Assembly (NCBI GenBank): GCA_934271735.1
Contig: CAKQSB010000005.1
Span: forward strand, 86,614-150,613
Direction: 5' to 3'
Source of the DNA: an uncultured Clostridia bacterium
GTDB lineage: Bacteria > Bacillota > Clostridia > Christensenellales > Borkfalkiaceae
DNA: 64,000 nucleotides
A program made the position numbers and the translations under genes. Shown here in pieces: positions 10,619-37,090 of this stretch (position 1 is the first letter of the stretch; every line of letters begins with the position of its first letter). The notes beneath the pieces are model-generated. The model had not been told where the DNA came from. It did no database searches and saw nothing but the letters and a program-made list of their open reading frames with translations.

Positions 10619-11578
10619 ATGAAAAAAATAGCAATACTCACAAGCGGCGGAGACGCCCCGGGAATGAACGCCTGCATAAGGGCGTGCGTAAGAAGCGCGG
10701 TCAACAGCGGACTTGAAGTTTACGGCGTTGAAAGAGGTTACTTCGGACTTGTAAACAACTGCATCTTCCCGATGACTACCCACTCCGTGTGCGATATCGT
10801 CCAGAGAGGCGGCACAATTTTAAAAACCGCAAGATGTCTCGACTTCAAACTTCCCGAAACGAGAAAGAAAGCCGCGGACAACCTTAAAGCTCTCGGTATC
10901 GAAGGTCTTGTCGTAATCGGCGGCGACGGTTCGTTCACCGGCGCAAGACTTTTGTCCGACGAAAACGGAATCAACGTCGTGGGTATTCCCGGCACAATCG
11001 ATAACGACCTTGCTTATACCGACTACACTCTCGGTTTCGACACCGCGGTAAACACCGTTCTCTGGGCAATCAACAACCTCAGAGACACCATGACCTCTCA
11101 CGACAGAGTTTCGCTCGTCAAAGTTATGGGCAGACGTTGCGGAGATATCGCGCTTTACTCGGGTATCTGCGGCGGCGCGGAATATATCCTCGTTCCCGAA
11201 ATTCCTTACGATATTCAGGCTATCGCCGAAGATATCAAAAAGAGTAAGGAAAGAGGCAAAACTTCCAACATCATCGTTTTGGCGGAAGGCGCGGGCAACG
11301 AACAGGAAATCAAAACCATCGTTTCGGTTATCAGCGGCGCGGACGTTAAAGTTACTACTCTCGGTCACATTCAGAGAGGCGGCACGCCCACTATGGCGGA
11401 CAGAATGCTCGCCGCGAGATTCGGCACGAGAGCCACCGAACTTTTAATCGAGGGCAAGACCAACAGAGTTATCGGTATCAAACACAATAAAATAGTCGAT
11501 CTCGATATAACGGAAGCACTTTCCGAAACAAAGAAAATCGACAAAAAGCTTTACGATATGGCGGCTAAACTCTGCTAA
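10619..11578 (+). CDS. pfkA: ATP-dependent 6-phosphofructokinase.
   Basis: 319 aa. TSGGDAPGMNA, GGDGS and IPGTIDND motifs. Strong RBS (aaggaggtaaacat ATG). Confidence 0.9.
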   Translation: MKKIAILTSGGDAPGMNACIRACVRSAVNSGLEVYGVERGYFGLVNNCIFPMTTHSVCDIVQRGGTILKTARCLDFKLPETRKKAADNLKALGIEGLVVIGGDGSFTGARLLSDENGINVVGIPGTIDNDLAYTDYTLGFDTAVNTVLWAINNLRDTMTSHDRVSLVKVMGRRCGDIALYSGICGGAEYILVPEIPYDIQAIAEDIKKSKERGKTSNIIVLAEGAGNEQEIKTIVSVISGADVKVTTLGHIQRGGTPTMADRMLAARFGTRATELLIEGKTNRVIGIKHNKIVDLDITEALSETKKIDKKLYDMAAKLC

Positions 11579-11605
11579 AATGTCGCTAAAAACACGAAAA
11601 AACTT

Positions 11606-12838
11606 ATGAAAAATCTTAAAGGAAGATGCGTTTTCGCTCAATCGGGCGGACCTACCACGGTTATAAACGCGAGTATTGCGGGCGGACTTCTGGAGGCTCT
11701 CGACAGCGAAAACATCACGGGCGTTTTGTGCGCTCATCACGGAATAAAAGGCGTTCTGGACGAGGACTTTTTCGATATTTCGGCGGAAGACAGAGCCGAG
11801 TTGGAAGCTCTCAAATACACGCCCGCTTCGGCGTTCGGTTCGGTCAGATATAAGCTCAAAAATCCCGCCGAGGACGATTCCGATTATCGCAGAATTTTGG
11901 AGGTTTTCAAAAAATACGACGTTCGTTATTTTTTCTATAACGGCGGCAACGACAGTATGGATACCTGCGATAAAATCTCGAAATATATGCAGAAATCGGG
12001 TTACGATATGAACGTTATCGGTATTCCGAAAACAATCGATAACGACCTTTGCGGCACAGACCACTGCCCCGGCTACGGCAGCGCGGCGAAATACATAGCC
12101 AACTCCGTTATGGAAGTGAACAGAGACGCCGAGATTTACTATTCCCCGCTTGTCATAATCGTGGAGATTATGGGCAGAAACGCGGGCTGGCTCACCGCGG
12201 CAAGCAGACTTGCTTCCGTAAACGGCGACGGCGCCGACCTTATTTATCTTCCCGAAGTTCCTTTCTGTTACGAGAAATTTTTGAGAGACGTTAAAAAGGT
12301 AGTGGACGAAAAAAATCACTGCGTCGTAGCGGTTTCCGAGGGAATACGTTTTGCGGACGGCAGATACGTCGGCGAAGACGGCAGCTCGGTGGACGATTTC
12401 GGACATTCTCAGCTCGGCGGCGTTTGTTCGGCTTTGAAAGCGCAGGTCAAAACGCTCGGAATAAAGTGCAAGGCTATCGAACTTAACATTCTGCAACGCT
12501 GCGCGGCGCACTGCGCTTCGGAAACGGACATTGAGGAGTCATTTTCGGCAGGGCGTTATGCCGTTAAAAAAGCCATAGAAGGCGAAACCGACAAGATGAT
12601 CGGTTTTAGAAGAAAGGGCGGAAACAATTACGAAATCGAATACGTTGCCGAACCGCTTTCCTCCGCGGCGAACGCCGAAAAGAAAATCCCTGCCGAATGG
12701 ATAACGGAAGACGGCACGAGCCTTACCGAAGATTTTGTTTCCTATGCTCTTCCCCTTATTTCGGGCGAACCCAAACGCAGGCTCAAAAACGGACTTCCCG
12801 AATACGCAAAGCTTAAATTCGTAAAGATTAAGCTTTAA
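11606..12838 (+). CDS. Second phosphofructokinase paralog (long-form, possibly PPi-dependent).
   Basis: 410 aa. GGPTTVINAS, GGNDS and PKTIDNDL PFK-family motifs. Longer, divergent paralog directly after pfkA. Confidence 0.7.
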   Translation: MKNLKGRCVFAQSGGPTTVINASIAGGLLEALDSENITGVLCAHHGIKGVLDEDFFDISAEDRAELEALKYTPASAFGSVRYKLKNPAEDDSDYRRILEVFKKYDVRYFFYNGGNDSMDTCDKISKYMQKSGYDMNVIGIPKTIDNDLCGTDHCPGYGSAAKYIANSVMEVNRDAEIYYSPLVIIVEIMGRNAGWLTAASRLASVNGDGADLIYLPEVPFCYEKFLRDVKKVVDEKNHCVVAVSEGIRFADGRYVGEDGSSVDDFGHSQLGGVCSALKAQVKTLGIKCKAIELNILQRCAAHCASETDIEESFSAGRYAVKKAIEGETDKMIGFRRKGGNNYEIEYVAEPLSSAANAEKKIPAEWITEDGTSLTEDFVSYALPLISGEPKRRLKNGLPEYAKLKFVKIKL

Positions 12839-25266: not shown

Positions 25267-25372
25267 CCGTTCGAAAAATTTCACCCCGCAAAACGGAAAA
25301 TTTTGTTATTTTACTTGAAATTTGACTTAAAAAAGGGTACAATATCAATATATACTTTTTTCAGGAAAACTT

Positions 25373-26296
25373 ATGAATATTTTATACTTGAAATACGCCG
25401 TAGCCGTGGCGAAAGCAGGCTCGCTCAATAAAGCCGCCGAGGAGCTTTTTATCGCTCAGCCGAACTTGTCGAGAGCCGTTAAAGAACTCGAAAAAGAACT
25501 CGGGATAGTAATTTTCGACAGAAACTCCAAGGGAATTACGCTGACTATGGACGGAGAACGGCTGATTTCTTACGGGAAAAGCCTCCTTCGCCAGATCGAC
25601 GAGATAGAAACGGAATTCAGAGAAAAAAAACACAAAACGGTTTTTTCCGTTTCCGCGCCGAGGGCGAGCTACATTTCGAGCGCGTTCGCGGAGTTCACGA
25701 AAGGGCTTTTGGAAAAGGAACGCTGCGACGCGTACTATAAGGAAACCAACAATCTCCGCGCGATAACCAACATTCTCGAAAAAGATTATAACCTCGGAAT
25801 CGTGAGATACGCTTCGGGTTACGACAAATATTTCAAACAGACGCTTGAAGAGAAAAACTTAAAACACGAGCTTATCGCGGAATTCGAGTTCTCTCTTTTA
25901 ATGAACAAAAACTGTCCGCTCGCTCAAAAAGACGAAATACGTTTTTCCGACCTTAAAGACTATATCCAGATAGCTCACGCAGATCCGTACGTTCCGTCCG
26001 TTTCTCTTTCCGAAATCAAAAAGGAAGAACTCCCCGACGACGTGGACAAACGCATTTTCGTTTTCGAAAGAGCCAGCCAGTTCGACGTTCTCGCCGAAAA
26101 TAAAGACACTTACGCCTGGGTTTCGCCCGTTCCCGAAGCCGCTCTGAAACGTTACGACTTAGTAATGAAAAAATGCGCCGATAACAACAAAGTTTATAAA
26201 GACGTGCTTATTTACAAAAAAGATTACGCTCTTTCGGGAATAGACAAAGAATTTATCACCGAGCTTTGCAACGCAAAGAGAAAATATTTCGGTTAG
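25373..26296 (+). CDS. LysR-family transcriptional regulator.
   Basis: 307 aa. N-terminal LysR HTH (LNKAAEELFIAQPNLSRAVKELE) and substrate-binding domain. Confidence 0.85.
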   Translation: MNILYLKYAVAVAKAGSLNKAAEELFIAQPNLSRAVKELEKELGIVIFDRNSKGITLTMDGERLISYGKSLLRQIDEIETEFREKKHKTVFSVSAPRASYISSAFAEFTKGLLEKERCDAYYKETNNLRAITNILEKDYNLGIVRYASGYDKYFKQTLEEKNLKHELIAEFEFSLLMNKNCPLAQKDEIRFSDLKDYIQIAHADPYVPSVSLSEIKKEELPDDVDKRIFVFERASQFDVLAENKDTYAWVSPVPEAALKRYDLVMKKCADNNKVYKDVLIYKKDYALSGIDKEFITELCNAKRKYFG

Positions 26297-26297
26297 C

Positions 26298-26569
26298 CAT
26301 AGGTGATTGCGTTCAAACCAGGTCTTGCGTTGTGTTTTTGACTAATACATCGTTGCGTTCGCGTGTTATACGCAGAGTATTAACGCGCTCACGCGCCTTG
26401 TCTTAGCCTAAAAACGCAAGGCAAGACTTGTCGGCAACCAAAACGTCGTTATTTTCGATGAATTTTGGCGAAGGCGAACGCAGATGTACTTACCGTACTT
26501 CAAGCGAGAATTTGACAAAAGGCGCGGAAATAACGGCGTTTTGGCGGGTTCTAACACAATCACCTGTGG
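26298..26569. mobile_element. MITE-like element of about 270 bp, bounded by ~23 bp imperfect terminal inverted repeats and with internal nested hairpins.
   Basis: ccataggtgattgcgttcaaacc (26298-26320) matches the reverse complement of ggttctaacacaatcacctgtgg (26547-26569) at 19 of 23 positions. Internal stem ggtcttgcgttgtgtttttg / taaaaacgcaaggcaagac. Confidence 0.35.
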
Positions 26570-26641
26570 CTAAAATCTCTGCCGATATATTTTTTAAATT
26601 CGATATATCTTTTTTCATATATCGGTATAAAAATTAAGTAT

Positions 26642-26670
26642 TTTACATAACCGATTTTAATTGATATAAT
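26642..26670 (+). promoter_or_regulatory. Candidate adhE promoter: TTTACA-17-TATAAT with a TG-extended -10.
   Basis: ttttacataaccgattttaattgatataat. Would give a 5'UTR of about 350 nt. Confidence 0.45.
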
Positions 26671-26699
26671 AGTATCGATAAAAATGTAGCTATTTAAAA

Positions 26700-26960
26700 C
26701 CCCAGCAAAACTCGCCTTGAAGCCGTCTTTTCTATGCTTTACGGCAAATTCGCCCTCGTAGTATTTGTTTACAACGTCGGTTGCCTTCGCCATAAATCAT
26801 TAGAAAATACGGCTTCAAGGTTGCCCTATATATTAAGTTATCGATACCGCAAATTTTCAGGCGTAGCTTGCGTTTAAGGCAAGGCGTTTTCGCGGGTTAG
26901 TATACAAATACAAGCCGCGAAAAGAACGATGAATTAAGCGTAAGATACGCCTGAAAATCG
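26700..26960 (+). promoter_or_regulatory. Long structured adhE 5' leader with nested long-range inverted repeats.
   Basis: cgccttgaagccgtc (26716) pairs with acggcttcaaggttg (26803). ttttcaggcgta (26857) pairs with tacgcctgaaaa (26948), with an inner ttttcgcgg / ccgcgaaaag pair. Confidence 0.35.
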
Positions 26961-27033
26961 AATTTTGTTGAGGTTTTAAATAGCTAACGATTGTTTTTCC
27001 GAGAAAAACTCTGAAAAAGACAAGGAGGCTGAA

Positions 27034-29706
27034 ATGGAATTCGATTACAAAATAACCGACAGCGTGGAAACGCTCGAACAAACTGTCGCGAGAGTGAAAA
27101 AAGCTCAGGAAGAATACTCTTCTTTTACGCAGGAACAAGTAGACAAAATCTTTTTCGCGGCGGCAATAGCCGCAAACAAGGCGCGTATTCCGCTCGCAAA
27201 AATAGCGGTAAGCGAAACGGGAATGGGCGTTATCGAAGACAAGGTGATAAAAAACCATTACGCTTCCGAATATATTTACAACGCTTACAGAGACGTTAAA
27301 ACGTGCGGCGTTATAGAGGAAGACAAAGCTTACGGCATAAAGAAAATCGCCGAGCCGATAGGGCTTATCGCGGCGGTTATCCCCACCACCAACCCGACTT
27401 CGACGGCTATTTTCAAAACTCTTCTCGCTTTGAAAACAAGAAACGGAATTATCATAAGCCCGCATCCCAGAGCCAAAAACTCCACTATCGCGGCGGCTAA
27501 AACCGTTCTGGAAGCGGCAATTTCCGCGGGCGCGCCGAAAGATATAATCGGCTGGATAGACGTTCCGTCGCTCGAAATGACAAACCTTCTGATGAAAGAA
27601 GCAGACATTATCCTCGCAACCGGGGGCCCCGGAATGGTCAAAGCCGCATATTCGAGCGGAAAACCCGCCCTCGGCGTAGGCGCGGGCAACACCCCGGCGA
27701 TTATAGACGATTCCGCGGACATAACGCTCGCGGTAAACTCGATTATCCACTCCAAAACATTCGACAACGGTATGATCTGCGCTTCCGAGCAGTCCGTTAT
27801 CGTTCTCGATAAGGTTTACGATAAAGTAAAAGCCGAATTTGCGGCGCGCGGCTGCTATTTCTTAAACGAAAGCGAAACAGAAATGGTAAGAAAAACGATA
27901 ATCATAAACGGCGCGCTCAACGCTAAAATCGTGGGACAGAAAGCCGCGACAATCGCAAAACTTGCGAACGTGAACGTTCCCGAGGGGACGAAAATTCTTA
28001 TAGGCGAAGTGGAAAGCGTTGAACTTTCCGAAGAATTCGCCCACGAAAAACTCTCCCCCGTTCTTGCGATGTACCGCGCAAAAGACATCGAAGACGCGTT
28101 TTTAAAAGCCGAAAGGCTTATCGCGGACGGCGGATTCGGACATACTTCGTCAATTTATCTCGACGTTGCCTCGCAACAAGCCAAGATAGACGAGTTCGCC
28201 GAGAGAATGAAAACCTGCAGAATACTCGTGAACACCCCCTCTTCTCAGGGCGGTATCGGAGACTTATACAACTTTAAACTCACCCCCTCTTTAACGCTCG
28301 GCTGTGGAAGCTGGGGCGGAAACAGCATTTCGGAAAACGTAGGCGTTAAGCACCTTCTTAATATCAAAACCGTTGCGGAAAGGAGAGAAAATATGTTGTG
28401 GTTTAAAGCTCCCGAAAAAATTTACATCAAAAAAGGCTGTCTGCCCGTCGCTCTTTCCGAGCTTAAAACAATGGGCAAAAAGCGTTGTTTCGTGGTTACG
28501 GACAGTTTCCTTTATCATAACGGTTACACCCGCCCGATAACCGACAGACTCGACGAAATGGGAATTTCCCACGCTACGTTTTTCGACGTTGCGCCCGACC
28601 CTACTCTCGCCTGCGCGAAAGAGGGAACGAAACAGATGACGGACTTCAAACCCGACTGCATAATCGCGCTCGGCGGCGGTTCGGCTATGGACGCGGCGAA
28701 GATTATGTGGGTTATGTACGAACACCCCGAAGTGGATTTCCTCGATATGGCGATGAGATTTATGGACATCAGAAAGAGGGTTTACACTTTCCCGAAAATG
28801 GGTGAAAAAGCTTATTTCATAGCTATCCCCACTTCTGCGGGAACGGGCTCGGAAGTTACGCCGTTCGCGGTTATAACCGACGAATCGACGGGCGTCAAAT
28901 ACCCGCTCGCGGACTACGAATTGCTTCCGAAAATGGCTATAATCGACACCGATTTTCATATGAGCGCACCCAAAGGGCTTACCGCGGCTTCGGGAATAGA
29001 CGCAGTTTCGCACGCCTTGGAGGCTTACGCTTCCATGATGGCTACCGATTATACCGACGGACTTGCGATAAAAGCTTTGCAGACTATTTTCGAATATCTT
29101 CCGAGAGCTTACGAAAACGGACAAACCGACGTTATCGCCCGCGAAAAAATGGCTAACGCAGCGACTATGGCGGGTATGGCTTTCGCGAACGCGTTCTTGG
29201 GAGTTTGCCACTCTATGGCGCACAAACTCGGAGCTTTTCACCACATTCCGCACGGCGTTGCGAACGCGCTTATGCTCGACGAAGTTATTCGCTTCAACTC
29301 CGCCGACGTACCCGCGAAAATGGGAACGTTCCCGCAGTACGACCACCCGCATACGCTCGGCAGATACGCTGAAGTTGCGGACGCGCTTAAGATAAAAGGC
29401 AAAACGGACGAAGAAAAGGTGGAAAATCTTATAAAGGCTCTGGACGAACTCAAAGCGACCGTCGGCATAAAACCGACCATAAGAGATTACGTACCCGACG
29501 AACAGGCGTTCCTCTCCTCTTTGGACGAGATGACGGAGCAGGCGTTCGACGATCAATGCACCGGCGCGAACCCGAGATATCCGCTTATGAGCGAGATAAA
29601 ACAAATGTATTTAGACGCGTATTACGGCAAAAAATTTGTCGAAGCGAAAACGCCCGGGGGCGCGAACTTAAAGCCGAAGACGAAAAAGGTTAAGGAGGAA
29701 AAGTGA
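27034..29706 (+). CDS. adhE: Bifunctional acetaldehyde-CoA / alcohol dehydrogenase.
   Basis: 890 aa. N-terminal ALDH domain and C-terminal Fe-ADH domain. RBS aaggaggctgaa ATG. Confidence 0.95.
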   Translation: MEFDYKITDSVETLEQTVARVKKAQEEYSSFTQEQVDKIFFAAAIAANKARIPLAKIAVSETGMGVIEDKVIKNHYASEYIYNAYRDVKTCGVIEEDKAYGIKKIAEPIGLIAAVIPTTNPTSTAIFKTLLALKTRNGIIISPHPRAKNSTIAAAKTVLEAAISAGAPKDIIGWIDVPSLEMTNLLMKEADIILATGGPGMVKAAYSSGKPALGVGAGNTPAIIDDSADITLAVNSIIHSKTFDNGMICASEQSVIVLDKVYDKVKAEFAARGCYFLNESETEMVRKTIIINGALNAKIVGQKAATIAKLANVNVPEGTKILIGEVESVELSEEFAHEKLSPVLAMYRAKDIEDAFLKAERLIADGGFGHTSSIYLDVASQQAKIDEFAERMKTCRILVNTPSSQGGIGDLYNFKLTPSLTLGCGSWGGNSISENVGVKHLLNIKTVAERRENMLWFKAPEKIYIKKGCLPVALSELKTMGKKRCFVVTDSFLYHNGYTRPITDRLDEMGISHATFFDVAPDPTLACAKEGTKQMTDFKPDCIIALGGGSAMDAAKIMWVMYEHPEVDFLDMAMRFMDIRKRVYTFPKMGEKAYFIAIPTSAGTGSEVTPFAVITDESTGVKYPLADYELLPKMAIIDTDFHMSAPKGLTAASGIDAVSHALEAYASMMATDYTDGLAIKALQTIFEYLPRAYENGQTDVIAREKMANAATMAGMAFANAFLGVCHSMAHKLGAFHHIPHGVANALMLDEVIRFNSADVPAKMGTFPQYDHPHTLGRYAEVADALKIKGKTDEEKVENLIKALDELKATVGIKPTIRDYVPDEQAFLSSLDEMTEQAFDDQCTGANPRYPLMSEIKQMYLDAYYGKKFVEAKTPGGANLKPKTKKVKEEK

Positions 29707-30455
29707 TGGATCTTGACAGAGTTATAGCCGTCCGAAACAACAAGACAGTTTACCGCGACGGCGAGGACTGCGTAAAGGTTTTCGAAAGCGTTTACGAAAA
29801 GGACGACGTTTTATCGGAAGCTTTAAATCAGGCGCGCGTGGAAAAAACAGGGCTTAACATACCGAAAATCAAAGCCGTTACGATGATAGACGGCAAATGG
29901 GCGATAATTTCCGACTATATCAAAGGAAAAACGCTCGACAGGCTGATAAAGGAAAACCCCGGAAAGAAAAAGGAATATATCGAAAGGCTTGTCGACCTTC
30001 AGATCGAAGTTCAGTCGAAAACCTGTCCCAAGCTTAATAAACTTAAGGACAAAATGAACGCTAAAATTTCTGAGGCCGAGCTTGACGAATCGGTTAAATA
30101 CGAATTGCACACAAGGCTTGAAAGTATGCCGAAACACGTAAAACTCTGCCACGGAGATTTTAACCCGTCGAACATTATCGTCGGCGACGACGGAAAGGAT
30201 TATATTCTGGACTGGTCTCACGCGACGATAGGAAACGCCTCGGCGGACGTTGCGAGAACTTACCTTTTGTTCTGGCTTGCGGGAGACATAAGCGGCGCGG
30301 ACTATTATCTCGACGCTTTCTGTTTAAAAAGCGGCACGAAAAAGGAATACGTTCAGAAATGGATGCCGATCGTCGCGGCTTCGCAATCGGTTAAAGGCAA
30401 CAAGGAACAACGCGAATTTTTGCTTTCGTGGGTCAACGTCGTGGACTATCAATAA
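29703..30455 (+). CDS. Phosphotransferase-family (APH / CotS / choline-kinase-like) kinase-fold protein, translationally coupled to adhE.
   Basis: 250 aa. HGDFNPSNIIV catalytic loop and ILDWSHA (DFG-equivalent). The start (GTG at 29703 or ATG at 29706) overlaps the adhE TGA stop. Confidence 0.7.
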   Translation: MMDLDRVIAVRNNKTVYRDGEDCVKVFESVYEKDDVLSEALNQARVEKTGLNIPKIKAVTMIDGKWAIISDYIKGKTLDRLIKENPGKKKEYIERLVDLQIEVQSKTCPKLNKLKDKMNAKISEAELDESVKYELHTRLESMPKHVKLCHGDFNPSNIIVGDDGKDYILDWSHATIGNASADVARTYLLFWLAGDISGADYYLDAFCLKSGTKKEYVQKWMPIVAASQSVKGNKEQREFLLSWVNVVDYQ

Positions 30456-30458
30456 GCC

Positions 30459-30525
30459 GCGGATTGTCAATAAGGATTGTCAATAAGTCCGTGATCTTTT
30501 TGTAAGACGCGGATTGTCAATTACT
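30459..30525. promoter_or_regulatory. Three direct repeats GGATTGTCAAT(A/T)A plus two copies of ATAAGCCGCG, upstream of the hfsA-hydS-PP2C operon. Candidate operator.
   Basis: gcggattgtcaataa (30461), ggattgtcaataag (30475), gcggattgtcaatta (30510). Confidence 0.5.
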
Positions 30526-30596
30526 CGCGGTTATCATCGATAAGCCGCGAACTATCGATATACCGATAAACGAAAATCCGAAACAGGAGAACAGAT

Positions 30597-30839
30597 ATGA
30601 TAAAAGTTACCGTTTGTATAGGCAGCTCCTGCCACATAAAAGGCTCGAGACAAATTGTCGAAGACCTTCAGCGTCTCGTAGCCGAAAACAAACTTGACGA
30701 AAAAGTCGAGCTGGGCGGCACGTTCTGTATGGGGAGATGCAAAGAGGGCGTTTGCGTTACCGTGGGCGACGATTTCTTCTCCGTAAGCCCCGAAAACGTC
30801 GACGATTTCTTCAAAAAAGAAATACTTCCGAGGGTTTAA
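30597..30839 (+). CDS. Small thioredoxin-like (2Fe-2S) ferredoxin, NuoE/HfsA-like.
   Basis: 80 aa. CIGSSCHIKGS ... CMGRCKEGVCV four-Cys pattern. Confidence 0.75.
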   Translation: MIKVTVCIGSSCHIKGSRQIVEDLQRLVAENKLDEKVELGGTFCMGRCKEGVCVTVGDDFFSVSPENVDDFFKKEILPRV

Positions 30840-30854
30840 AAGCAACGCAAAACC

Positions 30855-30957
30855 CGTAATGGCGAACATTGTCTGTCAGAAAAATTTACATAACAAAAAA
30901 ATAACAAACGATTCGTAACGGCGAACATTGTTCGACCGAAAAGATTCACATAAAAAC
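30855..30957. repeat. Two copies of an ~45 bp direct repeat (58 bp period) between the paralogous ferredoxin genes.
   Basis: cgtaatggcgaacattgtctgtcagaaaaatttacataacaaaaa versus cgtaacggcgaacattgttcgaccgaaaagattcacataaaaaca. Confidence 0.5.
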
Positions 30958-31000
30958 ATACGCCGGAAAATAACGGCGAAAAAAGATAAGGAAGATTATT

Positions 31001-31264
31001 ATGATAATAAGAGTATGCGTCGGCAGTTCCTGCCATATAAAAGGCGCGCCGGAAATAGTCGAACTTTTTCAGAATTACATAGCGCAGGAAAAACTCGAGG
31101 ACGATATCGTTCTTGTGGGGAGCTTCTGCGCGGGAAAATGCAACCGCGTGGGCGTAACCGTCTCCGTGAACGACGAAGTTTACACGGGCATAAATCCGCA
31201 GAATTTTCTGAGCCTTTGGAACGACAAGATAATACCGGAAATCAAAAAAGAAAAAGAGGGTTAA
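31001..31264 (+). CDS. Second small (2Fe-2S) thioredoxin-like ferredoxin, a paralog of 30597-30839.
   Basis: 87 aa. CVGSSCHIKGA ... CAGKCNRVGV. Stop is 1 bp before the hydS ATG. Confidence 0.75.
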   Translation: MIIRVCVGSSCHIKGAPEIVELFQNYIAQEKLEDDIVLVGSFCAGKCNRVGVTVSVNDEVYTGINPQNFLSLWNDKIIPEIKKEKEG

Positions 31265-31265
31265 A

Positions 31266-32942
31266 ATGATGTCGGATTTTCTCACGTTAAAAAAATCAAA
31301 CTGCAAAAACTGCTATAAATGTATACGTCACTGCCCCGTTAAATCGATAAGATTTTCGGCAAATCAGGCGCATATCATAGGCAACGAATGTATTCTTTGC
31401 GGACACTGTTTCGTAGTCTGCCCGCAGAACGCGAAAGAGATAAAGAGCGAAACCGAGTTGGCGAAAGTTCTTATCCAGTCGGGCGATCCCGTTTACGTTT
31501 CGATCGCGCCGTCGTTTATAGCAAACTACGAAAACGTAGGCATAAACGGTATGAGCGAAGCGCTCAAGAAACTCGGGTTTGCGGAAGTGGAAGAAACGGC
31601 GATAGGAGCTACGATCGTCAAAAAGGAATACGAAAGAATGTTGTCCGAGGAAAAACGGGATATCGTCATTTCCTCGTGCTGTCATTCGATAAATCTTCTC
31701 ATTCAGAAATATTTCCCCGATTCACTGAGATACCTCGCGAATATTCTCTCCCCTATGCAGGCGCACGCGAGGGATATAAAGGAAAGAGTTCCGAACGCAA
31801 AAGTCGTGTTCATAGGACCTTGCGTCGCGAAAAAGGACGAAGCGGCTTATTACGACGGGCTTGTGGACGCGGTTTTAACTTACGAGGAACTCGCGGAATG
31901 GCTCAAAGCCGAGAAAATCGAGCTTAAAAGCAATATGGACGATACCGAAAAGAGCCGCGCGAGATTTTTCCCCACGACGGGCGGAATTTTAAAAACTATG
32001 GAGCAACTCCCCGAATACACTTACCTTGCGATTGACGGCGTGGAAAACTGTATCGCCGCGCTCAAAGATATCGAAAGCGGGAAAATTCACAACTGCTTTA
32101 TCGAAATGTCCTCGTGCGTGGGAAGCTGCATAGGCGGTCCCGTTATGGAAAAATATCACCGTCTGCCCGTTAAGGACTACGCGGCGGTCGCGAAATATGC
32201 CGGCAAAAAGGATTTCGACGTGAATATGCCCGACAGAGTGTCTCTTCTCAAAAGCATGACGGCTATCGGCAGAAAATCCGTTCCGCCGACCGAACAGGAA
32301 ATCGAAGAAATACTCAAGAAAATGGGTAAATTCAAAAAGGAAGACGAGCTTAACTGCGGTTCTTGCGGCTACGATACCTGCCGCGAAAAGGCGGCGGCTA
32401 TTTTCGAAGGAAAAGCCGAAATTTCGATGTGTCTCCCGTTCCTTAAAGAAAAAGCCGAAAGTTTTTCGGACTGCATCGTTAGCAACACCCCGAACGGACT
32501 TATCGTTTTAAACGAGAGCCTCGAAGTTCAGCAGATAAACGCTTCGGCGAGAAAAATCATGAACATCCGCTCCGCAAGCGACGTTCTGGGCGAAAGCGTT
32601 ATAAGAATTCTCGACGTGGACATTTTCTCGAGAGTTTTAAAAACCAAGCGTAGCGTGAGAAACGAAAGAGCTTACCTTGCGGAATATAAAAAATACGTAG
32701 AACAGTCGGTTATTTACGACGAGAATTATCACTTGCTCGTTTGCCTTATGAGGGATATAACAGACGAAGAAACGGAGCGCGAGAAAAAAGAAAGCATTTC
32801 CCGCCAGACCATAGAGGTCGCGGACAAAGTAGTCGATAAACAGATGCGAATCGTTCAGGAAATCGCGTCGCTCCTCGGCGAAACGGCGGCGGAAACCAAA
32901 ATCGCGCTTACGAAATTGAAGGAGTCTATCGAAGATGAATGA
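31266..32942 (+). CDS. hydS: Sensory [FeFe]-hydrogenase-like protein (HydS/HfsB type): 2x[4Fe-4S] ferredoxin, H-cluster domain, C-terminal PAS.
   Basis: 558 aa. CKNCYKCIRHCP and CILCGHCFVVCP ferredoxin motifs. H-cluster L2-like IGPCVAKKDE and L3-like EMSSCVGSCIGGP. C-terminal PAS-like region. Confidence 0.85.
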   Translation: MMSDFLTLKKSNCKNCYKCIRHCPVKSIRFSANQAHIIGNECILCGHCFVVCPQNAKEIKSETELAKVLIQSGDPVYVSIAPSFIANYENVGINGMSEALKKLGFAEVEETAIGATIVKKEYERMLSEEKRDIVISSCCHSINLLIQKYFPDSLRYLANILSPMQAHARDIKERVPNAKVVFIGPCVAKKDEAAYYDGLVDAVLTYEELAEWLKAEKIELKSNMDDTEKSRARFFPTTGGILKTMEQLPEYTYLAIDGVENCIAALKDIESGKIHNCFIEMSSCVGSCIGGPVMEKYHRLPVKDYAAVAKYAGKKDFDVNMPDRVSLLKSMTAIGRKSVPPTEQEIEEILKKMGKFKKEDELNCGSCGYDTCREKAAAIFEGKAEISMCLPFLKEKAESFSDCIVSNTPNGLIVLNESLEVQQINASARKIMNIRSASDVLGESVIRILDVDIFSRVLKTKRSVRNERAYLAEYKKYVEQSVIYDENYHLLVCLMRDITDEETEREKKESISRQTIEVADKVVDKQMRIVQEIASLLGETAAETKIALTKLKESIEDE

Positions 32943-34107
32943 TCTTTGCGTGGATATCGGCTACAAAAGCATAAACCACGTCGGCGAACAGCTTTGCGGC
33001 GACCACGTCGACGTTGTGGAACAAGGCGAAAACTCGCAGGTCGTGGTTCTGGCGGACGGACTGGGGAGCGGCGTTAAGGCAAGCATACTTTCCACGCTCA
33101 CCTCGAAAATCATTTCCACGATGATGGCTGAGGGGCTTTCCCTCGAGGACTGCGTTTCCACAATTGCCGCGACGCTTCCCATCTGCTCGGTCAGAGGGGT
33201 TGCTTATTCCACTTTTACGATAGTTCATATCGTCAACAACGAGACGGCGGAAATTATGGAATTCGACAATCCGCAGGTCATCGTTTTAAGAGACGGATCG
33301 AATTATCTTTACCATAGAACGGAAATGACCATCGGCGGAAAACGCATCTATAAGTCGATTATCCCGCTGAAAGACAACGACGTGTTTATTCTGATGAGCG
33401 ACGGTTGCCCGCACGCCGGGCTGGGAACTCAGTTCAATTTCGGCTGGAAAAGAGACGAAATAATCAACTTCCTTCTCCCTAACGTTTACGTCGGTTACAC
33501 GGCAAAAACGCTCTCCACCATTCTCGTGGACGAATGTAATCGTCTTTACGGAAACAAGCCGGGCGACGATACGACGGCAGTCGTTTTAAAGGTCAGAAAG
33601 CGCGAGCCGATGAACCTTCTTTTCGGTCCGCCCTCCAACCCGGACGACGCAAACCGTATGATGTCTTTGTTCTTCTCCAAAGAGGGAAAACATATCGTAT
33701 GCGGCGGAACGACCTCGTCTATCGCCGCAAAATATCTCGGGAAAACCGTCAGACCGACTTTGAATTTCGTTCGAAGCGACGTTCCGCCGATTGCCGAAAT
33801 AGATGGCGTGGATCTTGTTACGGAAGGCGTTATAACGGTAAATAAAGTCGTGGAATATGCGAAAGACTCCTTAAGCGAAAACAAGCTTTACGAAAAATGG
33901 AGTTTCGGACAGGACGGCGCGTCGCTTATCTGCAGGCTTTTATTCGAAGAAGCGACGGATATCAACTTTTTCGTCGGCAGAGCCGTAAACCCCGCGCACC
34001 AGAACCCCGATCTTCCCATAAACTTCAACATTAAAATGAATCTTGTGGAAGAACTTTCGAAATGTCTTAAACAAATGGGTAAAAGAATAAAGGTAAGCTA
34101 TTTCTGA
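32935..34107 (+). CDS. PP2C-family (SpoIIE/RsbU-type) serine phosphatase, 8 bp overlap with hydS.
   Basis: 390 aa. GDHVDV...VVLADGLGSGVKAS PP2C metal-binding signature. ATGAATGA overlap with the hydS stop. Confidence 0.85.
   Translation: MNDLCVDIGYKSINHVGEQLCGDHVDVVEQGENSQVVVLADGLGSGVKASILSTLTSKIISTMMAEGLSLEDCVSTIAATLPICSVRGVAYSTFTIVHIVNNETAEIMEFDNPQVIVLRDGSNYLYHRTEMTIGGKRIYKSIIPLKDNDVFILMSDGCPHAGLGTQFNFGWKRDEIINFLLPNVYVGYTAKTLSTILVDECNRLYGNKPGDDTTAVVLKVRKREPMNLLFGPPSNPDDANRMMSLFFSKEGKHIVCGGTTSSIAAKYLGKTVRPTLNFVRSDVPPIAEIDGVDLVTEGVITVNKVVEYAKDSLSENKLYEKWSFGQDGASLICRLLFEEATDINFFVGRAVNPAHQNPDLPINFNIKMNLVEELSKCLKQMGKRIKVSYF
33345..33365 (+). repeat. Dispersed motif copy inside the PP2C coding sequence, in-frame I-Y-K-S-I-I.
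   Basis: catctataagtcgattatccc. Confidence 0.7.
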
Positions 34108-34120
34108 AAAACAAAAGTCA

Positions 34121-34155
34121 AAATAAAAGTCGTCCCAAAGGGGCGACTTTTTTCG
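34121..34155. terminator. Bidirectional terminator between the PP2C gene and a convergent membrane-protein gene.
   Basis: aaaagtcgtccc aaag gggcgactttttt. Confidence 0.6.
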
Positions 34156-34167
34156 TTTGTTTTTGCG

Positions 34168-35121
34168 TTAAATTTCCACGTCGTTCAAAAGCTGCTCGTC
34201 GTTTTCGCGAAGCTCCTTGGGAACGATTATGTTGTCGTAATCGATGAAATATCTTTTAACGTTTATCGTGTAATAATCGATCAGTCTCATACAAACCGTC
34301 ATAAGGGTGAAGAACGCCGCGATAAGAACCGATCCCGCGCCGAGCGTAAACACGCCCATCGATATAAACAGGTATACGTATATGAGATTTACCGACAAAT
34401 ACGCGGAGAACATTCTCCAGAAATATTTTTTGCCGGGGTGAAGTCCTTTTATAAACGCCTGCTTAACGCCGAGGCCTCCGACGATCATATTCGCCATAAC
34501 CTGACTTAAACAGGACGAATAAATACCTACCGAAAATGCCAGAATACACACGCCTAAAAACACGACGATTACCGTTAAGTAAGGGGCTAAAAATCTGAAC
34601 AAAATAAACTCCACAAAAAAGACCACGGCGTAGTAAACGATAGCCAAAACCGCGTCTATAAGTTGATAAACGACGATTTTCTTCAAATTTTCGAACATAA
34701 CTCCGAGATACCCTCTGTGCGATAAACTCGACATATATCCGTCGACTAAAATCATCAGAGTACAGTCGCTCAGCCCTGCGAAAAATCTGTAAAGATAAAC
34801 GATCAGAACGCAGATAAGCGCGGCTATGACGATACTGCCGACGTTAGCCGAAATATACGCGAGAAACTCGTTGAAATGCGCGGTGAGGTTGGACGAATTC
34901 GTCGCCGAAACTCCGCTCTGCCCTTTTAAAAGAGCTTTTATGATTTCCGCGATATCCTGCAAAACGGGTTTAAGCTGTTCGATAAACGGCGTTAAACTGA
35001 CGTTTAACGTAAACCACACCGCAGTTGCGAAAAGCGCGAAAATAATCGTTTTATAAAGAATATTTTTAAATACAAGCCCGAAGTTTCCTATGGCTATTTT
35101 AAACGCGTTGATTACCCGCAA
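34168..35121 (-). CDS. Multi-pass integral membrane protein of unknown function.
   Basis: 317 aa with several hydrophobic helices. No recognised catalytic motif. Confidence 0.55.
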   Translation of the reverse strand: MRVINAFKIAIGNFGLVFKNILYKTIIFALFATAVWFTLNVSLTPFIEQLKPVLQDIAEIIKALLKGQSGVSATNSSNLTAHFNEFLAYISANVGSIVIAALICVLIVYLYRFFAGLSDCTLMILVDGYMSSLSHRGYLGVMFENLKKIVVYQLIDAVLAIVYYAVVFFVEFILFRFLAPYLTVIVVFLGVCILAFSVGIYSSCLSQVMANMIVGGLGVKQAFIKGLHPGKKYFWRMFSAYLSVNLIYVYLFISMGVFTLGAGSVLIAAFFTLMTVCMRLIDYYTINVKRYFIDYDNIIVPKELRENDEQLLNDVEI

Positions 35122-35207
35122 AACTTCTCTCCTCCGCCGCTTTGTTTCCGACCGATAATTTAAAACGTTTTCTTCGGCTTTCTTTTTAAGCGGCTCGTTA
35201 TAACCCT

Positions 35208-35383: not shown

Positions 35384-36385
35384 TTATTTATTCATCGCCT
35401 TTTCAACGGCAACCGCAACCGCAACGGTAGCTCCAACCATCGGGTTGTTACCCATACCGATAAGACCCATCATCTCTACGTGAGCGGGAACGGAAGAAGA
35501 ACCTGCGAACTGAGCGTCCGAATGCATTCTTCCCATAGTATCGGTCATACCGTAAGAGGAAGGACCTGCCGCCATATTGTCGGGGTGAAGCGTTCTGCCC
35601 GTGCCGCCGCCCGAAGCAACGGAAAAATATTTCTTGCCGTTTTCTACGCACCACTTTTTGTAAGTGCCTGCAACGGGGTGCTGGAATCTCGTGGGGTTCG
35701 TGGAGTTACCCGTGATGGAAACCATAACGTTTTCGAGTTTCATTATCGCAACGCCTTCGGGAACGTTATCCGCGCCATAGCATTTAACCTTAGCTCTCGG
35801 TCCGTCCGAATAAGGCTTTTCGTAAACTACGGTTACCTTTTCGGTGTAAGGATCGAAGGTGGTTTCGACGTAAGTGAAGCCGTTGATTCTCGAAATGATC
35901 ATAGCCGCGTCTTTGCCGAGACCGTTAAGAATAACTCTTAAGGGTTTGGTTCTTACGGTGTTTGCGTTAAGAGCGATTTTGATTGCGCCTTCCGCCGCCG
36001 CGAAAGATTCGTGACCAGCCAAGAAGCAGAAGCAATCGGTGTCGTCCGAAAGGAGCATCGCGCCGAGATTTCCGTGACCAAGTCCTACCTTTCTGTTATC
36101 GGCAACGGAGCCGGGAATACAGAACGACTGAAGACCGATACCGATCTTAGCCGCTGCGTCCGCAGCTTTTTTAGCTCCGCTCTTTATAGCGATAGCCGCG
36201 CCGACGGTGTAAGCCCAAACGGCGTTCTCGAAGCAAATAGGCTGAGTGCTTCTTACGATATCGTCGCAATCAACCCCTTTTGCAAGACAGATTTCCTTGC
36301 ATTCTTCAACCGAAGAAATGCCGTATTCTTTCAAAGTAGCATTGATTTTGTCAATTCTTCTTTCATATCCTTCAAATAAAGCCAT
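35384..36385 (-). CDS. GGGtGRT family protein.
   Basis: 333 aa. Literal SGGGTGRTLHP motif. Confidence 0.75.
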   Translation of the reverse strand: MALFEGYERRIDKINATLKEYGISSVEECKEICLAKGVDCDDIVRSTQPICFENAVWAYTVGAAIAIKSGAKKAADAAAKIGIGLQSFCIPGSVADNRKVGLGHGNLGAMLLSDDTDCFCFLAGHESFAAAEGAIKIALNANTVRTKPLRVILNGLGKDAAMIISRINGFTYVETTFDPYTEKVTVVYEKPYSDGPRAKVKCYGADNVPEGVAIMKLENVMVSITGNSTNPTRFQHPVAGTYKKWCVENGKKYFSVASGGGTGRTLHPDNMAAGPSSYGMTDTMGRMHSDAQFAGSSSVPAHVEMMGLIGMGNNPMVGATVAVAVAVEKAMNK

Positions 36386-36397
36386 TTCTTCTTCTCC

Positions 36398-37090
36398 TTA
36401 TTCCTTTCTCGGATCGATATATTTGTAAGCGTTCTCGAATCTGCCGTAGTGACCCTTGGCTTTCTCGTACGCCTCGTTGGGAGTGAGACCTTTTTTGATA
36501 AAATCGGTCATTTTGCCGAGCGAAACGAACTCGTAACCGATAACCTGCATATCTTCGTCGAGAGCCATTCTCGTAACGTAGCCCTCTGCCATTTCAAGAT
36601 ATCTCGTACCCTTTTCCTTAGTTCCGTACATGGTTCCGACCTGCGAACGAAGTCCTTTTCCGAGGTCCTCGAGTCCCGCGCCGATAACAAGTCCGTCGTC
36701 GGAATAAGCCGACTGAGTACGTCCGTAAACTATCTGTAAGAAAAGTTCTCTCATTGCGGTGTTGATAGCGTCGCAGACAAGGTCGGTATTAAGAGCCTCG
36801 AGAATGGTTTTTCCGGGAAGAATCTCGGAAGCCATTGCCGCGGAGTGAGTCATACCCGAACAGCCGATGGTCTCGATCAAAGCCTCTTCGATAACGCCTT
36901 TTTTAACGTTGAGCGAAAGCTTGCAGGCTCCCTGCTGAGGAGCGCACCAACCGACGCCGTGAGTAAATCCGCTGATGTCGGTTATCTGCTTAGCTTCAAC
37001 CCAAAGCCCCTCTTCGGGGATAGGCGCGGGTCCGTGCTTAGGACCTTTCGCTACGCAGACCATATCCTTTACTTCGTTTGAATATTGCAT
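36398..37090 (-). CDS. NifU/IscU-like Fe-S scaffold-like protein, operonic with the GGGtGRT gene.
   Basis: 230 aa. IETIGCSGMTHSAAMA segment. 12 bp from the downstream gene. Confidence 0.45.
   Translation of the reverse strand: MQYSNEVKDMVCVAKGPKHGPAPIPEEGLWVEAKQITDISGFTHGVGWCAPQQGACKLSLNVKKGVIEEALIETIGCSGMTHSAAMASEILPGKTILEALNTDLVCDAINTAMRELFLQIVYGRTQSAYSDDGLVIGAGLEDLGKGLRSQVGTMYGTKEKGTRYLEMAEGYVTRMALDEDMQVIGYEFVSLGKMTDFIKKGLTPNEAYEKAKGHYGRFENAYKYIDPRKE

Follow-up and report, generated by a model that had tools for sequence, protein, structure and literature searches.

Here, we describe a gene cluster in a 64,000-nucleotide (nt) stretch of DNA from an uncultured Clostridia bacterium of the Borkfalkiaceae (contig CAKQSB010000005.1; "the window" below denotes this whole stretch). 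In this cluster, adhE, whose product is the bifunctional acetaldehyde-CoA/alcohol dehydrogenase, is followed by genes for a small kinase of the aminoglycoside phosphotransferase (APH) type, two [2Fe-2S] ferredoxins (Fdx1 and Fdx2), a putative sensory [FeFe]-hydrogenase (HydS) and a phosphatase of the PP2C/SpoIIE family. The genes are coupled at several junctions, retain their catalytic residues, and are orthologous to and syntenic with the rex-adhE-kinase-fdx-hydS-PP2C-hydrogenase clusters of Ruminococcus albus and Clostridium thermocellum. The reading we favour, to which we give somewhat better than an even chance, is that the window holds this fermentation-control cluster in a form reduced to a six-gene operon behind a LysR regulator gene, and that it acts as an H2-responsive phospho-switch on adhE. 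The original prediction, made by a model from the DNA letters, had likewise proposed a redox- or H2-sensing kinase/phosphatase switch on adhE; the idea holds up as a hypothesis but is not new, since the same one has been published for the R. albus cluster (PMC5707799, PMC6776011). Judged by sequence comparison, the arrangement is genuine, highly conserved and of biological importance, and it is orthologous to a described cluster. Our main new result is provided by the neighbourhoods of distant members of the kinase family, which is a general companion of alcohol dehydrogenase, Rex and [FeFe]-hydrogenase genes.

The choice that fermenters make between H2 plus acetate and ethanol underlies both the transfer of hydrogen between species in rumen and gut and the yields of cellulosic ethanol strains. 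As the sensor behind this choice, the HydS-PP2C-kinase cluster is the foremost candidate. The window presents the cluster in its minimal form, with adhE as the sole visible output and with neither rex nor a catalytic hydrogenase gene. What remains of particular interest is the signalling chemistry, this minimal adhE-only form, and the fact that the APH-fold kinase is linked to adhE, rex and hydrogenase genes throughout its family.

The closest described system emerged from a tblastn search of plasmid records with the kinase, which returned a 69% identical gene on the R. albus 7 megaplasmid pRUMAL01, in the order LysR-Rex-AdhE-phosphotransferase-Fdx-Fdx-HydS-SpoIIE-HydA2. Gene order and orientation are the same as in the window, and each gene of the window's cluster is matched there by an orthologue with 54-75% identity (LysR 57%, AdhE 75%, kinase 69%, Fdx1 68% (WP_013483409), Fdx2 54% (WP_013483410), HydS 67% and PP2C 74%). 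The two clusters also have the hydS/PP2C overlap and the motifs of HydS in common. The window differs in having no rex upstream and no hydA2 downstream, in lying on the chromosome, surrounded by housekeeping genes, where R. albus has the cluster on a megaplasmid, in a TGATG overlap at the adhE/kinase junction where R. albus has a 15-nt gap, and in an approximately 360-nt structured leader and longer internal spacers. For this R. albus cluster, published as the HydS transcription unit, Zheng et al. (2014), as summarised in PMC5707799, proposed that HydS senses H2 and transduces the signal to the adjacent Ser/Thr kinase. Greening et al. (2019) reported that the R. albus "eight-gene cluster" is down 111-fold when a hydrogenotroph or syntrophic partner keeps H2 low (PMC6776011). 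On the strength of this literature, H2-dependent co-expression can be regarded as established for the R. albus cluster.

In C. thermocellum, the published annotation lists Cthe_0422 (rex), 0423 (adhE), 0424 (annotated as "aminoglycoside phosphotransferase"), 0425 (hypothetical), 0426 (the sensory hydrogenase, entered as a Fe-S cluster domain protein), 0427 (SpoIIE) and 0428-0430 (bifurcating hydrogenase HydCBA), and the Cthe_0422-0431 block is co-regulated. As far as this annotation goes, adhE, the APH-annotated gene, the small protein, the PAS-type sensory hydrogenase and SpoIIE all correspond to genes of the window; the differences are the presence of rex and an output hydrogenase that is trimeric and bifurcating. 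With the R. albus and C. thermocellum clusters both published, the arrangement has been in the literature since 2012-2014, and the suggestion that it was undescribed does not hold.

A looser parallel is the hfsABCD locus of Thermoanaerobacterium saccharolyticum and T. thermosaccharolyticum, in which HfsB, an [FeFe]-hydrogenase, bears a PAS domain and HfsC is a PP2C phosphatase; B- and C-like genes are thus present in the window too. Genetics connects the locus with the expression of adhE and the yield of ethanol: deletion of hfsB raises adhE expression. In C. thermocellum DSM 1313, where the hfs operon is Clo1313_1796-1793 and the kinase gene, by position, is Clo1313_1797, hfsB deletion raises ethanol production. 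The Thermoanaerobacterium locus differs from the window in lying apart from adhE, in having no described APH-fold kinase, and in containing HfsD; the window has no D-like hydrogenase. Tsac_0415, the adhE neighbour in T. saccharolyticum, was considered as a counterpart of the kinase and rejected, being an unrelated protein confined to Thermoanaerobacterium. A more distant analogy is offered by HoxBC-HoxJ-HoxA of Ralstonia eutropha, where a low-activity hydrogenase and a PAS-type partner set the phosphorylation of a regulator of hydrogenase genes; there, the sensor is a [NiFe] enzyme acting through a histidine kinase and a response regulator, with no homology to the proteins discussed here.

To place the window among its relatives, one genome per species was scanned for relatives of the kinase, yielding at least 597 species with one. 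Gene neighbourhoods were then mapped by tblastn for the best 80 loci (80 species; kinase identity 67-78%), and the denominators below are the loci with enough flanking sequence. All 80 come from metagenome-assembled genomes of gut or rumen Clostridia, related genomes carrying the labels Oscillospiraceae or Acutalibacteraceae. In 55/59 loci, AdhE is the immediate upstream neighbour of the kinase, so that linkage to adhE, which the original prediction had considered might prove unconserved, is in fact kept. HydS and PP2C follow the kinase in 60/65 loci, the 8-nt hydS/PP2C overlap is present in 60/63, HydA2 follows PP2C in 49/57, and LysR and Rex are present in 44/53 and 27/53, respectively. The arrangement is far beyond chance and recurs in most of these species-level genomes. 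The form seen in the window, with neither rex nor hydA2, is a minority one, common to its closest GTDB relative (L010), which has the same metK/radical-SAM neighbours and a PP2C 85% identical to that of the window. One locus (L082) carries the bifurcating enzyme HydCBA in place of HydA2.

Within the window, the six open reading frames (adhE, kinase, fdx1, fdx2, hydS and PP2C) were confirmed by the open reading frame listing and profile searches (Table 1); for the junctions, the sequence itself was inspected. The 3' end of adhE reads ...AAGGAGGAAAAGTGATG, in which AAGGAGG is followed, after 8 nt, by ATG; the kinase ATG shares its A with the adhE stop codon (TGATG) and is preceded by a perfect Shine-Dalgarno sequence. 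Public gene calls start the kinase at this ATG (29706), giving 249 residues. The predicted overlap between the adhE stop and the kinase start is therefore present, with a length of 249 rather than 250 residues; the GTG at 29703 assumed in the prediction is an alternative start that likewise overlaps the adhE stop. The kinase-fdx1 gap is 141 nt, in agreement with the approximately 140 bp predicted, and the two proteins that follow do form a paralogous [2Fe-2S] pair (PF01257; 41% identity). It is their gene position that would favour the label "HfsA-like", and HfsA itself aligns poorly with known proteins (PMC11837493). The last three genes are joined as described in the prediction, with a 1-nt gap between fdx2 and hydS and an 8-nt overlap (ATGAATGA) between hydS and the PP2C gene.

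HydS has the M2f architecture: two N-terminal [4Fe-4S] sites, the H-domain, a Cx2Cx4Cx16C motif (read as CGSCGYDTC...16...C), a PAS domain and a coiled-coil tail. Profile searches detected Fer4 families, Fe_hyd_lg_C, PF04060 (E=4.3e-11) and PAS (PF00989, 23.0 bits vs a cut-off of 22.6). The H-cluster, described in the prediction as degenerate, is not: all its cysteine ligands are kept, with both in L1 (SSCCH), one in L2 (GPCVAKKDE) and both in L3 (EMSSCVGSC), and the three motifs align to those of CpI, DdH and HydA1 and are conserved in 71 orthologues. Departures from catalytic enzymes are limited to second-sphere residues, where (in CpI numbering) Gly stands in place of M353 and Ser in place of M497. 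The same replacements, together with two [4Fe-4S] sites, the H-domain, Cx2Cx4Cx16C and PAS, are found in the biochemically characterised group C (M2f) HydS of Thermotoga maritima (TmHydS). At the position of CpI C299, the two proteins differ: TmHydS has Ala, and the residue is missing from both characterised sensory enzymes, TmHydS and TamHydS, while the window protein retains Cys, as does its R. albus orthologue. This Cys is kept, as [ST]SCCHS, in the window protein and in all 71 clade members (L089 included), and the proton-transfer argument made for TmHydS and TamHydS may therefore not apply to R. albus-type sensors. The H-cluster cysteines, M2f architecture and co-encoded PP2C with its 8-nt overlap fit HydS to group C3, which HydDB defines as phosphatase-linked (putative), and this bears on the question of its hydrogenase group raised in the original prediction.

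The phosphatase matches PF07228 with 54.5 bits. Over its first 225 residues, it can be aligned with 5mqh and 3t91, both SpoIIE structures, and none of the metal-binding motifs CGD, DGLGSG, SDG and GDD varies among 33 orthologues. For the C-terminal domain, there was no match to a Pfam family; a SIS-like assignment was considered and dropped, as it came from a single weak match (3trj, E=0.046) without backing from the fold search.

The 64 kb of the window encode neither a GHKL kinase nor a STAS protein and contain neither rex nor a second hydrogenase gene; tblastn detected no remnants of rex or hydA2 there. The absence of a GHKL-type kinase and a STAS partner had been predicted, together with the view that both would be expected in such a module. 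The first point is correct for the window, the second is not: HfsD of Thermoanaerobacterium is a ferredoxin-linked, HydA2-like hydrogenase and not a GHKL kinase (PMC11837493), and no extra kinase or STAS gene occurs between the mapped genes in the R. albus cluster or in any of the 80 loci, so nothing usual is missing from the module. It is beside the group D (M2e) hydrogenases, which have no PAS domain, that histidine-kinase-like ATPases are reported. Relative to the canonical cluster, what the window lacks is rex and the output hydrogenase.

A profile search, as the original prediction had proposed, assigned the kinase to PF01636 (E=1.3e-12), with its catalytic residues in place. These comprise the beta3 Lys K24, the alphaC Glu E38, the catalytic D151 and N156 within HGDFNPSN (residues 149-156), and the metal-binding D169-W170 of the DW motif. 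Over 120 family representatives, K24 and N156 are conserved at 97% and D169 at 92%, and D151 is kept in only 78%, which makes it probable that about a fifth of the family members are pseudokinases, the window protein, which has D151, not being among them. The family is large: approximately 8000 of the candidates that were scored belong to it, and at E<=1e-30 it has 291 cluster representatives. An AlphaFold2 model (pLDDT 94.6, pTM 0.90) predicts a bilobal fold with a helical C-lobe that, together with the beta3 Lys, alphaC Glu, HxDxxxxN motif and metal-binding Asp, makes this an APH/choline-kinase-like protein, an assignment that is new here. By contrast with these APH/choline-kinase features, the Pkinase domain, activation segment and substrate-binding C-lobe that characterise Hanks-type Ser/Thr kinases were not found. 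In fold comparison, the members of the fold that act on proteins or peptides score lower than its nearest neighbours (LxmK 15.6, YihE 13.9, CcrZ 13.5), with Bud32 and Rio at approximately 12-13 and PknB at 11.8 over 163 residues; "eukaryotic-like Ser/Thr kinase" is for this reason an annotation and not a finding. The proposal that a eukaryotic-like kinase replaces the RsbW kinase is not supported, given a fold nearest to small-molecule kinases and a family that also occurs without PP2C or HydS.

The mechanism that we propose follows the published hypothesis, and its H2 sensing, kinase/phosphatase antagonism and target are inferred. HydS, in which the H-cluster site is complete and is accompanied by a PAS domain and three accessory Fe-S sites, probably has the two small [2Fe-2S] proteins as partners and would report H2 pressure or the redox state of ferredoxin. 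Its PAS and coiled-coil end may control the translationally coupled PP2C, and the APH-fold kinase may supply the opposing phosphorylation or, alternatively, a phosphorylated effector. Candidate targets are the LysR regulator, Rex in the relatives, and AdhE itself. As H2 accumulates, the phosphorylation state of the target would raise adhE expression or activity and so direct electrons to ethanol.

Several observations weigh against such a switch. A phosphorylation target could not be identified: a STAS domain is absent, and the C-terminal domain of the phosphatase (residues 226-390), while conserved, has a generic Rossmann-like fold and not a STAS fold in the fold search. The catalytic Asp of the kinase is absent in 22% of the 120 family representatives, its nearest structures are all small-molecule kinases with APH enzymes as the best neighbours, and no experiments on it turned up in the literature searched. 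With no rex, no hydA2 and a degenerate Rex box, adhE regulation in the window may also differ from that in R. albus. Even among close relatives, five species have adhE and the kinase without any hydS block (L047, L050, L067, L072, L083). Distant members of the family add to this. An adhE-kinase pair is all that is present in P0125 (52% identity to the window kinase) and in Collinsella aerofaciens of the Actinomycetota (43%); P0198 (39%) has LysR-FeADH-x-Rex-kinase-Fdx-x-HydCBA, with no HydS or PP2C; and in P0234 (36%), the kinase gene overlaps a HydA2-like gene. Other neighbourhoods are Zn-ADH...NfnAB-NAD kinase-Rex-kinase-Fdx-HydS-PP2C in P0133 (44%), LysR-kinase-Fdx in P0143 (44%), and overlapping Rex and kinase genes in P0266 (35%). 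Overall, the distant APH-fold members of approximately 250 residues (35-52% identity; loci L090, L093, L095, L097, L099, L100, L102) usually occur without HydS and PP2C. As the family is found beside adhE, rex and hydrogenase genes without HydS or PP2C, the kinase is not an obligate partner of the phosphatase, which weakens, though it does not overturn, the case for simple kinase/phosphatase antagonism.

These neighbourhoods invite a bolder interpretation, which we put forward only tentatively and consider doubtful as it stands: that the 249-residue protein is one of a large and uncharacterised group of related APH-fold proteins, each of approximately 250 residues, in Bacillota and Actinomycetota, about a fifth of them probable pseudokinases, which is dedicated genetically to fermentative redox control, and that here, together with an H2-gated PP2C, it forms a phospho-switch on AdhE, Rex or LysR. 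If true, this would add a post-translational layer to ethanol/H2 partitioning. The kinase fold, the family linkage and the two promoter designs described below offer concrete starting points for genetic work in tractable relatives, C. thermocellum and R. albus among them.

A rival explanation, which we regard as rather unlikely, is that AdhE, Rex or the hydrogenases are the main partners of the APH-fold protein, which would act independently of HydS-PP2C, the latter being a separate unit that shares the operon; the kinase would then phosphorylate AdhE or Rex, or, in some lineages, sense nucleotides as a pseudokinase. The adhE-kinase pairs without HydS/PP2C in C. aerofaciens, P0125 and the five close species speak for this, as do the Rex-kinase overlap (P0266), the LysR-FeADH-Rex-kinase-Fdx-HydCBA locus and the kinase-HydA2 overlap, all likewise without HydS/PP2C, and in the window itself, TGATG couples the kinase gene to adhE, whereas 141 nt lie between it and the fdx-hydS-PP2C block. 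In the close clade, however, Fdx-HydS-PP2C comes after the kinase in 60/65 loci, and four loci without adhE (L014, L066, L075, L081) still have kinase-fdx-hydS-PP2C-hydA2, so that there the kinase stays with the sensor block. Moreover, the order Rex-kinase-Fdx-HydS-PP2C is still kept at 44% identity.

Improbable, in our view, is the reading that the protein is not a protein kinase at all, and instead, like its structural neighbours, phosphorylates a small molecule, the resulting metabolite or cofactor feeding ethanol/H2 metabolism or acting as a co-inducer of LysR. We reject the notion that the gene is an aminoglycoside or macrolide resistance determinant lying beside adhE by chance, which has next to no probability despite the "aminoglycoside phosphotransferase" annotation in public records and the APH enzymes among its best structural neighbours: scores for resistance families are far under the cut-offs (APH_3p 25.4 bits vs 205; MphL 25.3 vs 612), dozens of species in two phyla keep it in synteny with adhE, rex and hydrogenase genes, and the gene is translationally coupled to adhE with no mobile-element context. 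Homologues on plasmids of Clostridium estertheticum (approximately 28% identity) are not linked to adhE and are thus distant paralogues, and a plasmid of Niallia taxi encodes a homologue with 34% identity in a record without annotation.

Table 1. Cluster genes and putative regulatory features, with positions in the window.
Feature	Position	Strand	Details
LysR-type regulator, conserved 5' neighbour of the cluster	25373..26296	+	PF00126 E=2.2e-18
Sigma-70-like promoter TTTACA-17-TATAAT with extended -10 TG; putative operon promoter	26642..26670	+	11/12 consensus match
TATCGATA palindrome, candidate operator directly after the -10 box	26673..26680	.	further copies at 26839-26846 and 30553-30560
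Structured putative adhE 5' leader, ~360 nt	26678..27033	+	minimum free energy -137.8 kcal/mol, z = -9.0
Degenerate Rex-box remnant (TTGTTGAGGTTTTAAATA)	26965..26982	+	3 mismatches to TTGTTAAN4TTAACAA
adhE, bifunctional acetaldehyde-CoA/alcohol dehydrogenase	27034..29706	+	890 aa; NF010378 1395.7 bits vs cut-off 951
APH/choline-kinase-fold kinase (predicted fold), translationally coupled to adhE (TGATG)	29706..30455	+	249 aa
fdx1, thioredoxin-like [2Fe-2S] ferredoxin 1	30597..30839	+	80 aa; PF01257 E=1e-8; Cx4C...Cx3C
fdx2, thioredoxin-like [2Fe-2S] ferredoxin 2, fdx1 paralogue	31001..31264	+	87 aa; PF01257; Cx4C...Cx3C
HydS, putative sensory [FeFe]-hydrogenase, phosphatase-linked type	31266..32942	+	558 aa; Pfam architecture
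PP2C/SpoIIE-family phosphatase	32935..34107	+	390 aa; PP2C residues 1-225; Rossmann-like C-terminal domain 226-390
Intrinsic-terminator-like hairpin closing the operon	34125..34151	+	12-bp stem then T-run; best of the region (consensus match)

A predicted promoter and a terminator-like hairpin bracket the six genes. By consensus match, the promoter is the best site in 25300-35200, and approximately 84 nt around it are 74% conserved in four relatives (L004-L006 and L009). The TATCGATA palindrome occurs 6 times in the window (1.4 expected), three of these in non-coding DNA of the cluster, with the copy at 30553 preceding fdx1. We compared 43 related upstream regions, setting each motif against its shuffle mean. 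The TATCGATA palindrome (ATCGATA-type) is present in 23/43 (shuffle mean 2.0), mostly at rex-first loci, including R. albus, and often as two copies 14-15 nt apart (L004, L017, L035, L054, L059, L060, L089 and others). A canonical Rex box with <=2 mismatches is found in 22/43 (shuffle mean 0.3), mostly at adhE-first loci. As read from these motif counts, the cluster has two alternative promoter designs, with either a Rex box or TATCGATA palindromes as putative operators. The degenerate Rex box at 26965, all that a Rex-box search of the window gave, is on its own not above chance, and its position matches that of the Rex box in relatives.

The putative adhE leader contains nested inverted repeats (I1, I3, I6, I18) and is predicted to adopt an unusually stable multi-hairpin fold (26678-27045). 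It is lineage-specific, being conserved only in a contig of the same species (L001), and the corresponding intergenic regions of relatives are 130-350 nt. No Rfam family was found in the window or the leader, where the search returned only spurious miRNA matches under gathering scores. Two spacers within the cluster contain repeats as well: the kinase-fdx1 spacer has three extra tandem copies of the final 14 nt of the kinase gene (GGAyTrTCAATAAG; 30443-30524), and the fdx1-fdx2 spacer has a 43-nt direct repeat that is 81% identical (30855-30956). Both look like lineage-specific expansions, since the spacers of relatives are mostly approximately 10-100 nt.

Upstream of the promoter, an element of approximately 275 bp (26293-26573) lies exactly at the LysR stop codon and has 27-nt imperfect inverted repeats (TTAGCCATAGGTGATTGCGTTCAAACC / GGTTCTAACACAATCACCTGTGGCTAA) and two nested hairpins. 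It is absent from the otherwise approximately 99-100% identical metagenome contig L001, and no second copy was found in the window or the fetched loci. Its features are those of a strain-level insertion/deletion polymorphism resembling a miniature inverted-repeat transposable element.

The flanks of the window consist of housekeeping genes (lepA, dnaE, two pfk, aspS, alr, recG, metK, tyrS, pyrG, glnA, trpS, whiA and murB). Adjoining the cluster is a conserved gene pair made up of a gene for a 230-residue protein with a weak NifU-like N-terminal match and, directly downstream of it, one for a GGGtGRT-family protein (PF14057, E=1.6e-195; 35384-37090, minus strand). Between this pair and the PP2C terminator lies a gene for a 317-residue multi-pass membrane protein without a family (34168-35121). 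The two phosphofructokinase-family genes, encoding 319 and 410 residues, stand in tandem at 10619-12838.

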